Of a DNA stretch of 64,000 nt, positions 4,306-62,451 are shown piece by piece. Numbering within the stretch: the first letter of the stretch is position 1; each line of letters begins with the position of its first letter. Both the position numbers and the translations under genes were made by a program. The notes under the pieces are model-generated. The model was given only the letters and a program-made list of their open reading frames with translations. It was not told where the DNA came from and made no database searches. Source of the DNA: Minisyncoccota bacterium (GTDB lineage: Bacteria > Patescibacteriota > Minisyncoccia > Phycocordibacterales > JABMNX01); NCBI GenBank assembly GCA_965222715.1, contig OZ244961.1:365458-429457 (forward strand). Reading direction: 5' to 3'.

Positions 4306-4331
4306 GTTTACAATAAACGCCAAGAGTACTC
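4306..4331. terminator. Bidirectional intrinsic terminator, copy 1 of recurring palindrome, between convergent dsbA-like and nuclease genes
   Basis: aataaacgccaagagtactcttggcgtttatttt. Confidence 0.7.
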
Positions 4332-4487
4332 TTGGCGTTTATTTTGTATTGTTTAATATCTCAGCTATAGCTGAGATATTAAACAAAGGAAGTTTTATAC
4401 ATTACTTTTTATATGGTGCCCTTATACAAATTTCATACATTAACCTTCTACAAATTTCATGTATTACCCCTCTGTAAATTTTATATA

Positions 4488-20060: not shown

Positions 20061-20086
20061 AACGCCAAAGGTACCTTTGGCGTTTA
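20061..20086. terminator. Bidirectional intrinsic terminator, copy 2 of the recurring AAACGCCAARGGTACCYTTGGCGTTT palindrome
   Basis: aataaacgccaaaggtacctttggcgtttatt between convergent rnr and hydrolase genes. Confidence 0.7.
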
Positions 20087-22948: not shown

Positions 22949-23641
22949 TTACCAGCCTTTTTTCTCAAGTGCTGCTCGAGCAGCTTCTTGTTCTGCTTCT
23001 TGTTTTGCTCGCCCAGTACCACGCGCGACAAGTTCTTTTCCTACATACACACCTACTACGAACGTCTTGTCATGATCTGGTCCCTTCTCATCAATAAGCT
23101 CATAACTTGGGGTGATCCCCGTGTGCTCCTGAGCTTGCTCTTGGAAATTACTTTTTGCGTCCTGCCAGAGACGTTTTTCAATTACCTCATCCATCAAATA
23201 AAACAAATTCTTCGATATAAATTGTGCTGCACTGTCATAGCCCTGATCAAGATAGAGTGCCCCTACAATTGATTCAAAGGTGTTTGCAAGAATATATTGT
23301 CGCGCACGACCTGTGTCTTGCGCTTCGCCTTTTGAAAGTAGTAGGTATTCATTTACCCCAAGTTTATTTGATGCCTCAGAAAGTGTATTGGTATTCACGA
23401 GTGCGGCGCGATACGCAGTTAAATCGCCTTCAGTTTTATCTGGATAAGTGTCAAAAAGAAATCGAGTGACGACAAGCTCAAGCACTGCATCACCAAGAAA
23501 CTCAAGACGCTCGTTGTGTTCAAAACCACTGTCTCGATGCTCGTTAATATATGAACGATGCGTGAAGGCTTGCTGTAAAAGATTGCTGTCTTTGAATGTA
23601 ACACCAATCACTTTTTGAAACTCATGTATGTCTTTTTCCAT
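22949..23641 (-). CDS. rnc: Ribonuclease III
   Basis: ERLEFLGDAVLELVV catalytic signature, C-terminal dsRBD. Confidence 0.93.
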   Translation of the reverse strand: MEKDIHEFQKVIGVTFKDSNLLQQAFTHRSYINEHRDSGFEHNERLEFLGDAVLELVVTRFLFDTYPDKTEGDLTAYRAALVNTNTLSEASNKLGVNEYLLLSKGEAQDTGRARQYILANTFESIVGALYLDQGYDSAAQFISKNLFYLMDEVIEKRLWQDAKSNFQEQAQEHTGITPSYELIDEKGPDHDKTFVVGVYVGKELVARGTGRAKQEAEQEAARAALEKKGW

Positions 23642-23771
23642 CCCGTTAGTGTTAGGACACCACTATGTTAAATATGGTGTCATTGGTTAAACTTTAAATA
23701 AATATTCACATTATTTCAATGGTTCGAGTCAGTGTCCGACGGCTACCTAAAGGTAGCCTAACACTAACGGG
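23642..23771 (-). promoter_or_regulatory. Long-range stem: 15-bp perfect inverted repeat (CCCGUUAGUGUUAGG / CCUAACACUAACGGG) enclosing the entire nusB-rnc intergenic spacer, abutting the rnc AUG; candidate RNase III processing/autoregulatory stem
   Basis: Arms at 23642-23656 and 23757-23771. Inner 7-bp hairpin ggctacc-taaa-ggtagcc. Stem 3' arm ends 1 nt before rnc start codon. Confidence 0.45.
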
Positions 23772-23779
23772 ATCCATGA

Positions 23780-24700
23780 TTACTTGTCAGTAGTATCTTT
23801 TTTCACTAGTTGGTTGATTGCAGTAGTGATAATCGGGAGAATATCATCATAAAAATTAAGGTCAAGGATGTCCGAAAGTTTAAACCATTTTGCGTCATCA
23901 AGACCACCTTTGTCCTCAGGAAGAGTGAGATCTTCAAATGGTGCTTTTGCAAGATAATACACTACCTGTTTTCGCACCTTACCCTTCTCCGGTTGGCTGG
24001 CAATATACTCATTGGTGCCAAGTTTTTTCTTCAATTCAACGGATATACCAAGCTCTTCTTTAACCCCACGGGCAATACCCTCTTGAATTTCTTCATTCTC
24101 TTGAATGTGTCCTTTTGAAAGTGTCCAGTGACCAAATACATCATGAACAAGTGCAAGATATATCTCTTCCCCATCTTGTGCGTAGACAACTGCACCACCA
24201 AGTCGTTCAATAGGCATCTCTTCATACGGCACCTCTTTTACCTTTTTCTTTTTTGAGGTTTCGTTCTTACCTGGCTCGCCAAGCTCTTTATACACAGCCC
24301 CGAGTACTCCATTTACAAATCGACCACTATTCTCTCCTCCAAATGTCTTTGCGAGTTCGATTGCTTCATTAATCGCAACCTTTGCTGGCACTTCTTCACG
24401 GTCAGCAAATAAAAGCTCGGCAAGCCCAAGCCGGAGTACATTACGATCAACCACTGAAATTTTCTCAATTGGCCACTCTGGTGCGGCTTTCTCTATGATC
24501 TGGTCGAGCTCATTTCGTTTTGAAAGCACTAAATCAAGAAGTCGTTTAGTGAATGAGGCATCATTTAATCCTGGCGCGAACTCTTCAGTATTTCGTGCAA
24601 GTGCTTCGTCAATATCAGCACTCTTCCCTTTTACATCATCAAAATCAAACTCAAAGAGAGTTTGAAGAACAATACTTCTGGAAAGGTGCCTATTTGCCAT
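23780..24700 (-). CDS. nusB: NusB antitermination factor fused to a C-terminal NUDIX hydrolase domain
   Basis: N-terminal ~150 aa NusB (LQTLFEFDF..., VDRNVLRLGLAELLF). C-terminal Nudix box GHIQENEEIQEGIARGVKEELGI. Confidence 0.85.
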   Translation of the reverse strand: MANRHLSRSIVLQTLFEFDFDDVKGKSADIDEALARNTEEFAPGLNDASFTKRLLDLVLSKRNELDQIIEKAAPEWPIEKISVVDRNVLRLGLAELLFADREEVPAKVAINEAIELAKTFGGENSGRFVNGVLGAVYKELGEPGKNETSKKKKVKEVPYEEMPIERLGGAVVYAQDGEEIYLALVHDVFGHWTLSKGHIQENEEIQEGIARGVKEELGISVELKKKLGTNEYIASQPEKGKVRKQVVYYLAKAPFEDLTLPEDKGGLDDAKWFKLSDILDLNFYDDILPIITTAINQLVKKDTTDK

Positions 24701-31702: not shown

Positions 31703-31728
31703 AAACGCCAAGGGTACTCTTGGCGTTT
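31703..31728. terminator. Intrinsic terminator, copy 3 of recurring palindrome
   Basis: aaaaacgccaagggtactcttggcgtttttt after thrS. Confidence 0.7.
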
Positions 31729-38797: not shown

Positions 38798-38823
38798 TAA
38801 ACGCCAAGGGTACTCTTGGCGTT
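38798..38823. terminator. Intrinsic terminator, copy 4 of recurring palindrome (overlaps pheT stop codon)
   Basis: aataaacgccaagggtactcttggcgtttatt. Confidence 0.7.
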
Positions 38824-44640: not shown

Positions 44641-44725
44641 TGAGCCACCTGTCAGACTCGAACTGACGACCTACTCATTACAAGTGGTTCGAAGTTAGGC
44701 ACTTCTCACCTCCACCAACTGAGCC
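44641..44725 (-). pseudogene. tRNA-Thr-derived fragment: D-arm-like segment + 30-nt insert + exact copy of 3' half of tRNA-Thr, CCA end corrupted
   Basis: 45-bp direct repeat of 44728-44772 at 44642-44686. Ends GGCTCAAGG instead of GGCTCCA. Confidence 0.5.
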
Positions 44726-44801
44726 TGGAGCCACCTGTCAGACTCGAACTGACGACCTACTCATTACAAGTGAGTTGCTCTACCAACTGAGCTAAGGTGG
44801 C
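44726..44801 (-). tRNA. tRNA-Thr (anticodon UGU), CCA encoded
   Basis: GCCACCTTAGCTCAGTTGGTAGAGCAACTCACTTGTAATGAGTAGGTCGTCAGTTCGAGTCTGACAGGTGGCTCCA. 7-bp acceptor stem pairs perfectly. D, anticodon (loop CTTGTAA) and T arms (TTCGAGT loop) fold canonically. Confidence 0.85.
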
Positions 44802-44839
44802 GTATATACTTTTTTTCTTTAACACAACCTAAGCTATTC

Positions 44840-44914
44840 CAGCGAGACAACTCACTTGTAACAAGTGGTTCGAAGCTATTCGCTTCTCACCTCTACCAAC
44901 TGAGCTAAGGTGGC
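44840..44914 (-). pseudogene. tRNA-Thr-derived fragment: leader + 5' acceptor + D-arm identical to tRNA-Thr, followed by rearranged non-tRNA sequence
   Basis: ATATACGCCACCTTAGCTCAGTTGGTAGAG shared with intact tRNA. Then GTGAGAAGCGAATAGCTTCGAACCACTTGTTACAAGTGAG. Shares GTGAGAAGYG...CTTCGAACCACTTGT with the other fragment. Confidence 0.5.
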
Positions 44915-44969
44915 GTATATTTCTGCTTTAACCTTCTACCACCTTGATAGGTGATCTATTGAAGTGTGC

Positions 44970-49542: not shown

Positions 49543-49635
49543 TACTTAGTATACAACCTCTCGTATCACCGAATCAAACACATAACCCACGTAGTACCGT
49601 GGGTTATGTTCGTTCTTTAGTGAGTAAGCTACACA

Positions 49636-53947: not shown

Positions 53948-53973
53948 AAAACGCCAAGGGTACCCTTGGCGTT
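53948..53973. terminator. Intrinsic terminator, copy 5 of recurring palindrome
   Basis: aaaaacgccaagggtacccttggcgtttttt after kinase gene. Confidence 0.7.
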
Positions 53974-59544: not shown

Positions 59545-60570
59545 CTAGGAAATGTGACGTGCTGATTGGGTTGCATGTTGAAGGAGTGCATTGGTATACC
59601 CCATTTCATTATCATACCAAGAGAGTACCTTCACTAAGTTTCCCCCAACAACGCGAGTAAATGATAAGTCGGCAATCGACGCGTAGGTGCTTCCTATAAT
59701 GTCACTTGAGACTATCTGATCTGTAGTAACAGAAAATACTTTGTTCCACCTCTCTGTTTCTGCTGCTTGTGTAAGAATGTCATTTATTTCTTCAACGGTT
59801 ACTTCACGTTTTGCAAGAAAGGTAACATCAACAATTGATCCCACAACAACTGGTACACGGATGGCAATGCCGTCAAACTTACCTTCAAGTGAACGTATTG
59901 CTTTTGTGGTTGCAATTGCTGCACCAGTTGTTGTGGGAATAATATTTTGTGCAGCTGCTCTTCCCTTTCGAAAATCTTTAGCGGGACTATCAACAATACT
60001 CTGTGAAGCAGTATAGCCATGCACAGTGTTAAGAAGAGCTTTCTCTACACCAACTTCTTCTTCAAGGATTTGCATTAATGGACTTCCTGCGTTTGTGGTA
60101 CATGATGCGTTTGAACTAATGTCACATGTCTTGAGCACATCATCATTAACCCCCATTAAGACTGTTTCTCCAGTAATGTCGCTTGGCGGATTATCTTTAA
60201 CCGGAGCTGAAATGACCACACGTCGCGCACCAGCCTTAAGGTGGGCTCGAGATTTCTCATATGTCGTAAACATTCCCGTTGATTCAAGTACGAGGTCAAT
60301 TCCCATTTTTTTCCACGGCAACTTTTCTGGGTCTCGCTCGCTCAAAAAAGAAACGGTACGACCATTAATGACTAGACCACTTTCATTTACAGAGATATCT
60401 AAATCGCTAACCCCATATACTGAATCGTACTTTAATAAGTAGGCAAGATTTTCAATGTCGCCCAAATCATTAATAGCAACAACTTCTATATCCTGATTTC
60501 CTTCAGCAAGTTTAAAAAATGCTCTTCCGATACGACCAAATCCATTAATTGCTACTTTTTTCTTTTCCAT
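59545..60570 (-). CDS. gap: Glyceraldehyde-3-phosphate dehydrogenase
   Basis: KVAINGFGRIGR, SNASCTTNA catalytic Cys, WYDNEMGY. Start set at MEKKKV; the ORF track extends to 60684. Confidence 0.93.
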   Translation of the reverse strand: MEKKKVAINGFGRIGRAFFKLAEGNQDIEVVAINDLGDIENLAYLLKYDSVYGVSDLDISVNESGLVINGRTVSFLSERDPEKLPWKKMGIDLVLESTGMFTTYEKSRAHLKAGARRVVISAPVKDNPPSDITGETVLMGVNDDVLKTCDISSNASCTTNAGSPLMQILEEEVGVEKALLNTVHGYTASQSIVDSPAKDFRKGRAAAQNIIPTTTGAAIATTKAIRSLEGKFDGIAIRVPVVVGSIVDVTFLAKREVTVEEINDILTQAAETERWNKVFSVTTDQIVSSDIIGSTYASIADLSFTRVVGGNLVKVLSWYDNEMGYTNALLQHATQSARHIS

Positions 60571-60633
60571 GTATCCGATATAAAACCAATATACACTAAG
60601 TATAAAGGTAGATATCTCTAAGTCAAAAAAGGT

Positions 60634-62451
60634 TTGTGTGAAAAGGTTTCTCACGGGTATAATGAGCACATAATGTTTCGTCAATATACAGATTGGCTGC
60701 TTTTAGTTGTATTAGTAAGTACTACCATTGGTGGTATTACCGCAGCATCGTGGCACTACCAGAAAACACTAGAAGGTGAGATTACTTTTTTGAAAGATGA
60801 GCTACGTACATTTTGGACTCCAGATGTTGAGGTTGATGGAGTCTTATATCGCATCGATAAGACAATAGTAGTGGTTGGAAACGATGGGAAAAGTTTCGTA
60901 CCCACAAAAGAATTATCACAACAAAAGAAGCTGAATATTTTACGTACTGCCTATTTCTCAACACTTACACGGATCGATCCACTTTTTGCGCTTGATATGG
61001 CCAACACTGAAAAGCTTCGAGAAAGTATTTTTGATTTACGCACATCTCTTGATGCATACGCACCTTTCTACACAAGTACCGAAGAAAGATTTTTACGCTC
61101 ATCAGTATATCCCACAGAGTTTTTAGAAGAACTGAGTCACTTAGAAGATATTCGCCAACGTATTATTCTTGCTCCTCGCAACACAACTACAGAAGAGTAC
61201 TTGAAACAATTTGAAAAAACTGTGTATGCATACAAAAAAGGAATAGCTAACCTGCTCACCACATATGCACTTGTGTCTAATGACACACAGGAAGGAGACA
61301 GGTTTTATTTTATGGGTGGGTATACGACCATACCTCAATTTAAGACCGCCTTGGCCCTTATTGAGGAAAATATGCAGGCCACCTACAGAGAACATAAAAA
61401 ACGTGTTCTGTGTATTGAGGGAAATACTGATCAATGTCCTCACCTCACAGAACATCTGTTTCCTTATAGCATAAGTGATTTAACAAATTCTTCAAAAACA
61501 GTTTCACTACCTACGCAAGTTCTAGAAAATGCAACATTGCTTGAAGAGTACTATAAAAAAGATCCTCGAGTAGATAACAAATCATTCTCTCATCCAATTA
61601 TTGCATTGACGAGCAGTGATTGTTTTTGGGAAGAAGAAACTCAATTTTTTAAGACATTTTTACGAGAAATTGCCCCTGGAAAGGTTGTACTGAAACGAGA
61701 ATTCTTAAATGATTTGTATTTCTATAAATTAACTGAACCGGTTAGCATAATGGAATACGCAGCACTCTTACAGAGCCCAGACGCTGAGCAGGTGTATATA
61801 TATCAACCAATAGCAAATACGTATATGTGCCCTGAATCAGGGACAGATGCTGCAAAAATAAATACCCTGCTTTCTGTACAGTCACTACTTAAGCAACACC
61901 CAATATTCGGTACGGAATCTACAAAATTTAACCAAGAAGCGGAAAAACTTTTTACTATTGAAAAAAAGATACGTGAAAGTGATAAGATACTTTTTGAAAG
62001 TGATATTGATGAGTATGTAGTATGGTTAATTTCACTACTAAGAAATGCTAGCGGAGATAGACAGGTGTATAGAGCATTGGAAGCTGAGAGATTACTTAAC
62101 ATTGAAAGAATTTTGTCTCTCTACCAAAGTAAAACAGCTGGTTTTGATGAACTTATCTATGCACTGGTTGACGAAAGTGATTATTTAAAGAGAGCAGTGC
62201 AGAATAACTTTAAAATAGATTTTGTATACGTACTAATAAGTCGAGCAAATCCAATCCTTACTTTTCAAGCGTTTAATAGCACAATCCAAAGGGACACAAG
62301 ACCTTCAGTGCTATTTCCAAGCACGTCTGACCTAAAAGAAGCTTTTAATCTGGTGAGGTATGTAGAGGAAAAAGAGTTAAAAAACACTTATACAAAAGAT
62401 GAGTTACCAGAGTTAATGTGGAGAGGACACCAAGTCGAGCGACCTCTGTAA
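60634..62451 (+). CDS. Hypothetical membrane-anchored protein (605 aa)
   Basis: N-terminal TM LLLVVLVSTTIGGITAASW. Long helical soluble region. No family recognised. Start may be MFRQYTD (60673). Confidence 0.5.
   Translation: MCEKVSHGYNEHIMFRQYTDWLLLVVLVSTTIGGITAASWHYQKTLEGEITFLKDELRTFWTPDVEVDGVLYRIDKTIVVVGNDGKSFVPTKELSQQKKLNILRTAYFSTLTRIDPLFALDMANTEKLRESIFDLRTSLDAYAPFYTSTEERFLRSSVYPTEFLEELSHLEDIRQRIILAPRNTTTEEYLKQFEKTVYAYKKGIANLLTTYALVSNDTQEGDRFYFMGGYTTIPQFKTALALIEENMQATYREHKKRVLCIEGNTDQCPHLTEHLFPYSISDLTNSSKTVSLPTQVLENATLLEEYYKKDPRVDNKSFSHPIIALTSSDCFWEEETQFFKTFLREIAPGKVVLKREFLNDLYFYKLTEPVSIMEYAALLQSPDAEQVYIYQPIANTYMCPESGTDAAKINTLLSVQSLLKQHPIFGTESTKFNQEAEKLFTIEKKIRESDKILFESDIDEYVVWLISLLRNASGDRQVYRALEAERLLNIERILSLYQSKTAGFDELIYALVDESDYLKRAVQNNFKIDFVYVLISRANPILTFQAFNSTIQRDTRPSVLFPSTSDLKEAFNLVRYVEEKELKNTYTKDELPELMWRGHQVERPL

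Follow-up and report, generated by a model that had tools for sequence, protein, structure and literature searches.

The stretch of DNA analysed here, which we refer to as the window, is 64 kb long and carries on its minus strand a set of co-oriented genes in which rpmF lies upstream of nusB, nusB is followed directly by rnc and smc lies downstream, with a 138-nt spacer between nusB and rnc that is largely taken up by a long inverted repeat and its interior (Table 1). The rnc gene is intact and its product complete, with both the catalytic domain and the dsRBD of RNase III. A search found 8000 RNase III homologues, in whose alignment the invariant columns are kept in the window protein by construction, and these homologues assign the window to the CPR/Patescibacteria and, within them, to genomes resembling Paceibacteria and Kaiserbacteria, the nearest relatives being at most 76% identical in RNase III. 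The upstream gene had been labelled nusB in the original prediction, and its NusB part is indeed present, but the gene is a NusB-NUDIX fusion. The same arrangement of NusB with a C-terminal NUDIX hydrolase domain (~300 aa) is found in most Paceibacteria-like relatives (L001-L087), while the NusB encoded upstream of rnc in CPR groups further removed (Moranbacteria, Falkowbacteria and similar) stands alone and is ~145-200 aa long. The nusB(-NUDIX)-rnc order is kept in nearly all of the ~80 related loci listed, and across these the two genes are separated by -23 to +488 nt (median 30).

Both arms of the 15-nt inverted repeat on which the original prediction was built are present, CCCGTTAGTGTTAGG at 23642-23656 and its exact reverse complement at 23757-23771, and the perfect complementarity extends by a further AT on each side to give 17 bp (23640-23656 and 23757-23773). 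The longer repeat takes in the A and the U of the rnc AUG (23641-23639, minus strand), and when mismatches are allowed it reaches 29 nt at 83% complementarity. The gene layout is also as described, with 8 nt between the nusB stop codon (TAA) and the 15-nt arm, or 6 nt to the 17-nt arm, and with the 3' arm adjoining the AUG; read along the minus strand, the order is UAA (23782-23780), UC, AUGGA, U, CCCGUUAGUGUUAGG, 100 nt, CCUAACACUAACGGG and AUGGAAAAAG, the last belonging to rnc. The 7-bp internal hairpin exists, whilst the spacer, which had been called AT-rich, is so only to a modest degree (35% GC in the interior of the element vs. ~42% for the window). The ATGGA beside the nusB stop holds what appears to be the relic of the original rnc start codon, an ATG at 23777-23775 located 2 nt past the stop, and the short upstream open-reading frame (uORF) that begins there spans the 5' arm and the first two hairpins.

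Table 1 Features of the nusB-rnc junction and its two flanking genes, in the order in which they are read on the minus strand.
Feature	Position	Strand	Basis
NusB-NUDIX fusion, 306 aa, upstream gene	23780-24700	minus	ORF; Pfam NusB E=3e-32, NUDIX E=5e-14
Left copy of the ATGGA direct repeat	23773-23777	minus	sequence
uORF from the putative relic start, 23 codons plus stop (MDPVSVRLPLGSRRTLTRTIEIM, then stop)	23706-23777	minus	translation
5' arm of the closing helix, putative left terminal inverted repeat (AUCCCGUUAGUGUUAGG)	23757-23773	minus	
Internal hairpin 1, GGCUACC-UUUA-GGUAGCC, 7 bp	23741-23758	minus	
Internal hairpin 2, GUCGG-ACA-CUGAC, 5 bp	23728-23740	minus	
AU-rich centre, weak pairing, two weak sigma-70-like hexamer matches (9/12)	23682-23727	minus	
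Internal hairpin 3, GACACCAU-(10 nt)-GUGGUGUC, 8 bp including one U-G pair	23656-23681	minus	
3' arm of the closing helix, putative right terminal inverted repeat (CCUAACACUAACGGGAU)	23640-23656	minus	
Right copy of the ATGGA direct repeat, the present rnc start codon plus GA	23637-23641	minus	
rnc, RNase III, 230 aa, intact	22949-23641	minus	Pfam Ribonucleas_3_3 E=7e-39, dsrm E=1e-16

The inverted repeat is real and is more than chance would produce. Among perfect inverted repeats with a loop of 20-300 nt, the longest never exceeded 14 nt in 100 first-order Markov shuffles of the window, and the analytic expectation for a 17-nt repeat is ~1e-3. RNA folding, one of the checks proposed with the original prediction, bore out the stem: the 181-nt region folds at -55.8 kcal/mol (z = -5.9) and none of 200 shuffled sequences folded as well. 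The element by itself folds at -51.1 kcal/mol, into a 15-bp closing helix around an AU-rich centre and three hairpins (7, 5 and 8 bp), with a 17-bp closing helix as a near-isoenergetic alternative (-49.3 kcal/mol), and when 741 nt of the mRNA are folded, 13 of the closing pairs reach a probability of 0.98 or more. Hairpin 1 adjoins the closing helix, which in the folded model would allow coaxial stacking to ~22 bp. The two opposite strands are near-equal in folding (-51.1 vs. -50.2 kcal/mol) and G-U pairs are absent from the closing helix, both of which point to a DNA palindrome rather than to a structure tuned as RNA.

A helix that is stable, contains GC and lies where a gene ends might be taken for an intrinsic terminator or attenuator between nusB and rnc. 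We find this reading scarcely credible, as neither arm is followed by a U-tract on either strand, the element was absent from the output of the terminator scan, and the real terminator-like hairpins of the window are local (span ~30-38 nt) with T-runs after them. A separate family of 24-nt palindromes (AACGCCAAGGGT|ACCCTTGGCGTT), perfect or near-perfect, occurs in five copies in the 64 kb against none expected (4316-4339, 20061-20084, 31704-31727, 38800-38823 and 53950-53973). These sit at gene ends, mostly between convergent genes, flanked by A/T runs in the manner of bidirectional terminators, they vary by paired changes that keep the palindrome (AAGAGT/ACTCTT, AAAGGT/ACCTTT), and the family looks like a set of terminators with shared sequence or a REP/SPRITE-like repeat family.

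The compact, strongly stable fold of the nusB-rnc element, together with its two weak sigma-70-like matches on the gene strand, could also suggest a small RNA gene, or a promoter module driving rnc-smc whose transcripts, if initiated in the loop, would be free of the 5' arm and have an accessible AUG. The promoter-like matches are at noise level, however, with nine found vs. ~4 expected in a 2.8-kb region on both strands, and relatives couple nusB and rnc directly without a promoter. No homologues back an RNA gene either, and Rfam 15 gave nothing at the gathering threshold on the region, where the best match was to a plant miRNA model (E 0.59, 19 bits against a 211-bit threshold), so that this reading is very improbable. 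At permissive and gathering thresholds, applied to the region, the window and the loci of 20 relatives, Rfam returned only noise, and ARAGORN reported a tRNA-Thr only, elsewhere in the window. Two further identities were considered by eye and rejected: an integron attC site, for which GTTAGGC and CCTAAC cores are present in the wrong order, and a retron msr-msd, for which there are flanking repeats and no reverse transcriptase nearby.

We then compared the junction with the corresponding loci for ten RNase III proteins among the closest (74-76% identity), which represent eight lineages. Seven of the eight share the RNaseHII-rpmF-nusB/NUDIX-rnc-smc order with the window and have nusB-rnc spacers of 2, 5, 5, 5, 6, 8 and 15 nt, without a stem, compared with 138 nt in the window. 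The conservation of the repeat in related genomes that a regulatory element would lead one to expect, and against which the original prediction had asked to be checked, thus failed to appear in seven of the eight closest lineages. The eighth (L135, L138, L139 and L170) has a 245-nt spacer carrying a different element with an unrelated ~22-bp inverted repeat, and the copies of this spacer, three of them from the ten proteins compared, are virtually identical, differing by a single substitution. At positions 956-1200 of these loci the ~22-bp repeat (ACCCCCCACCAACTTTGC... / ...GCAAAGTTAGTGGGGGGT) surrounds a GC-rich core which folds strongly (-102 kcal/mol over 275 nt) and has no Rfam match, and on this spacer gene callers place a 53-aa open-reading frame. 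Further out, spacers of at least 59 nt with unrelated sequences are present in 43% of the more distant relatives listed.

The flanks of the palindrome in the window are in agreement with an insertion, as ATGGA is directly repeated on both sides of it. Excising one ATGGA copy along with the palindrome (136 bp) gives TAATCATGGAAAAAGACATACAT, a 2-nt junction, and the excised junction TAATCATGGAAAAAGAC (TAATC-ATGGAAAAAGAC) matches that of the relative L084 (ATGGAAAAAGATATACAC) at the start region, the RNase III N-terminus MEKDIH being identical in the two. The direct repeat, which overlaps the palindromic AT, is readable in two ways, as 5 bp of ATGGA or as 2 bp of GG with 17-bp inverted repeats. 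The 20 nt before the start codon of rnc (-20 to -1) are 55% GC vs. a mean of 33% for the other genes that start with ATG, which is consistent with foreign sequence. The present start codon would then be either the downstream copy of the duplicated target or the terminal AT of the element joined to the duplicated GG. A start codon re-created by the duplicated target explains why the stem abuts the AUG, and an insertion with target duplication accounts for the abutment better than a designed operator does. That the event was an insertion rather than a loss is a matter of parsimony across the loci compared.

In our reading the arms of the inverted repeat are probably the termini of a palindromic insertion, orphan and MITE-like, of ~134-136 bp in a former 2-nt nusB-NUDIX/rnc junction. 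Transposition is the mechanism of origin that we infer, and judged by the compared loci the insertion is specific to one lineage and is not a conserved regulatory switch. Several traits of MITEs are present: the terminal inverted repeats, ~10-50 bp in such elements, are here 17 bp and perfect; the element is small (134-136 bp) and without a transposase, its sole open-reading frame being the 23-codon frame from the relic start; and an empty site exists in seven close lineages, the reconstructed site matching L084. Multiple copies, a further trait, were not seen. There is no second copy in the window, which makes up ~10% of the 617-kb source genome, nor was one found in JGI metagenomes, viral contigs, or phage or plasmid collections, and no homologue of the element was found in any data searched. 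The two-arm pattern had no matches in the JGI metagenomes, in which a single-arm 16-mer had 47 chance-like matches, none extending beyond ~19 nt and none with a convincing partner arm; similarly, a single-arm 15-mer had 30 chance-like matches in viral contigs, again with no extended similarity and no convincing partner arm. A loose end pattern (CCGTTA...TAACGG) gave nothing above chance, and neither an arm-like sequence nor an IS with matching ends was found elsewhere in the 64-kb window.

A repeated element does occur at the same junction in a relative. In L002 (MAG Loclat_bin-14315) the element in the 150-nt nusB-rnc spacer has a second copy just downstream of rnc, the two (1350-1500 and 2197-2339, ~145 nt) being 79% identical, hardly varying at the ends but diverged in between. 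The L002 element is bounded by inverted repeats, each copy stops 8-19 nt before the next start codon, and its outer end (CACCCGTTAAAG) has CCCGTTA in common with the repeat in the window; it is clearly a repeated palindromic element in this clade. Other spacers of relatives also hold long inverted repeats, with arms of 15-28 bp. These observations bear on whether the window element arose locally and without mobility, for example through template switching or an inverted duplication while the junction was being replicated or repaired, as a neutral or slightly deleterious sequence with no function. Its single copy in all data searched, the near-equal folding of both strands and the failure to find a transposase partner would all suit such an origin. 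Against it, no part of the element resembles the flanking native sequence in the window, the three independent interior hairpins are not those of a simple snap-back copy, and the flanking direct repeat and the conserved-ends architecture in L002 fit transposition better, which leaves a local origin decidedly improbable.

As a putative insertion, the element is a so far single-copy addition to a known class, the palindromic MITE-like insertions that fold within mRNAs. The likeness is closest in form to the Correia elements of Neisseria (CREE or nemis), which are ~100-155 bp long, non-coding and gene-adjacent, with terminal inverted repeats that pair when co-transcribed. RNase III binds and cleaves Correia-element repeat hairpins within mRNAs, so that the neighbouring gene is expressed differently, and promoters too can arise from the elements (PMC2649163, PMC10969869). 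Correia elements differ in belonging to another phylum, in having tens to hundreds of copies and in duplicating TA, whereas a single copy of the window element was seen, with ATGGA or GG duplicated, and its neighbour is the RNase III gene itself. ERIC, RUP, SPRITE and the Rickettsia palindromic elements are likewise ~100-150 bp, non-coding, intergenic and folded in mRNA, with terminal inverted repeats (PMC10969869); they are present in many copies sharing a consensus, in contrast to the window element, which is so far unique and has no linked transposase. The stems that bracket 16S and 23S in pre-rRNA, which are substrates of RNase III, offer an analogy in geometry only, in that a long-range helix surrounds a structured segment and double cleavage would excise the interior, but the interior in the window is 100 nt long, non-conserved and without an Rfam match. 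The remaining comparison is with the rncO of E. coli, in which RNase III cleaves a hairpin in its own rnc leader (PMC3867540). In both, the 5' leader of the rnc mRNA contains double-stranded structure, and if cleaved the window element would likewise give negative feedback. However, rncO has the form of an irregular hairpin and follows a promoter, within a genuine 5'-UTR, while the window element is intercistronic, its perfect closing helix reaches into the start codon, and close relatives lack it.

Whatever its origin, the element is predicted to affect the initiation of rnc translation. The original prediction held that the stem sequesters the ribosome-binding region of rnc; the start region is indeed buried, from -17 to +2, but a classical ribosome-binding site is not what is hidden, since this genome, as judged by the window, makes no detectable use of Shine-Dalgarno (SD) sequences. 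Across the whole window an SD core is found at -18 to -4 in 5 of 54 genes, a background level of 9%, and the regions upstream of ATG starts are AU-rich (33% GC). By analogy with SD-poor bacteria, openness of the start site is probably the main initiation signal here. The cost of opening the rnc start region (-15 to +12) is 16.2 kcal/mol, vs. 7.4 kcal/mol for the reconstructed empty site and a median of ~8 kcal/mol for other genes, and the genes scoring above rnc are mostly dubious GTG or TTG calls. Given the lack of SD use and this opening cost, the element should depress rnc translation on full-length transcripts, and the modelled energies suggest that the insertion probably dampens RNase III production as a side effect.

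The course of events that we propose is as follows. The insertion would have duplicated its target (ATGGA, or GG where the AT is counted as part of the repeat), regenerating the start codon at the 3' edge of the element and leaving the relic ATG at the 5' edge. If rpmF, nusB, rnc and smc are co-transcribed, as is probable, the element would become part of the mRNA, where it is predicted to form a multibranch structure closed by the 15-17 bp helix that buries -17 to +2 of rnc and to lower rnc translation unless the helix is opened. Two openers can be envisaged. Ribosomes might re-initiate at the relic ATG beside the nusB stop, in which case translation of the uORF would melt the 5' arm; nusB and rnc overlap by 4 or 8 nt in many relatives, which suggests from their gene arrangement an ancestral coupling. 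Alternatively, RNase III might cut the helix, which would uncouple rnc-smc from nusB and leave a very short leader with a 5'-monophosphate; in E. coli such a cut destabilises the rnc mRNA (PMC3867540). The helix is of a suitable length for the enzyme, as originally proposed, the 15-17 bp of perfect pairing exceeding the ~11-bp minimum for bacterial RNase III, for which ~22 bp, or two helical turns, is ideal (PMC3867540). By analogy with these systems, RNase III cleavage and feedback are plausible, and any such feedback would be incidental to the insertion, as with Correia elements, and not the work of an ancient conserved operator.

The original prediction inferred an autoregulatory or operon-processing element. 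On this rival reading the helix would have been selected as an operator that is cut by, or titrates, RNase III, with the amount of enzyme controlling its own mRNA, and any mobile origin would be secondary (domestication). The helix lies exactly in the rnc leader, with a pairing probability of ~1 upstream of and across the AUG, it is long enough for RNase III even before the possible coaxial stacking, and unrelated long inverted repeats or hairpins are found at the same junction in many other lineages. Among 29 relatives with nusB-rnc spacers of 59-250 nt, z fell below -3 in 59% of these spacers vs. 33% of those upstream of nusB and 44% of those downstream of rnc, and the density of perfect long-range repeats in the junction was 1.5-4 times that of the remaining non-coding DNA in these loci. 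The enrichment of repeats at the nusB-rnc junction is suggestive but not robust: a Mann-Whitney test on z gave P = 0.053, the longest helix did not differ in length (P = 0.53), and the P for repeat density ranged from 0.3 to <0.001 depending on the arm threshold, with a coding mask that favours the junction. Similar repeats are also present in other spacers, and 57% of the relatives sampled have nusB-rnc spacers shorter than 59 nt. The conservation among relatives that marks an rncO-type structure is missing, since the element itself is absent from seven of the eight closest lineages, and the unrelated repeats elsewhere share no geometry, their 3' arms ending 6-62 nt upstream of the AUG. A conserved autoregulatory operator is contradicted by these comparisons, and a selected operator in this lineage is in our estimation rather unlikely.

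Convergent selection at the junction is possible. A broader version of this idea is that the nusB-rnc junction of Paceibacteria recurrently gains or retains unrelated long-inverted-repeat elements as dsRNA sensors of RNase III activity, with autoregulation arising repeatedly and independently from selfish palindromic DNA in these streamlined genomes without SD use, which we regard as an unlikely, speculative extension of the data. Were it true, the window element would be the most extreme case, with its helix fused to the start codon and the relic uORF as the opener. Taken instead as a single lineage-specific insertion, the element is mainly cautionary, in that a perfect stem at a start codon can be a by-product of target duplication and not a designed regulator. 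Should RNase III cut the helix, or should the helix block initiation, a selfish palindromic insertion would have tied an enzyme to the message that encodes it, in a bacterium that is uncultured, has a minimal genome and lacks SD-guided initiation, and the locus would then lend itself to simple tests of how structure at the start site governs translation in organisms of this kind.

A second candidate for a 'bracketing' helix (49543-49635) was rejected as an ordinary local hairpin after the preceding gene. A 16-bp perfect repeat (~19 bp with G-U pairs) at 59839-59854 and 59923-59938 lies inside an open-reading frame on the minus strand (59545-60684; z = -5.0), where its arms encode ...IIPTTTGAA... 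and ...RVPVVVGS..., motifs which we take to be GAPDH-like. This repeat probably results from runs of Thr (ACN) and Val (GTN) codons being reverse complements of each other and not from a selected RNA structure. Finally, the region around the tRNA-Thr gene (44726-44801, minus strand) is rearranged: the first 24 nt of the tRNA and the 6 nt upstream of it (ATATACGCCACCTTAGCTCAGTTGGTAGAG) are directly duplicated ~113 nt upstream (duplicates at 44920-44891 and 44807-44778, within the region 44700-44927), an inverted copy of the anticodon-arm region lies at 44848-44872, and a third partial copy (GCTCAGTTGGTGGAGGTGAGAAG) is located past the 3' end of the tRNA; these fragments are possibly scars of integration or recombination.
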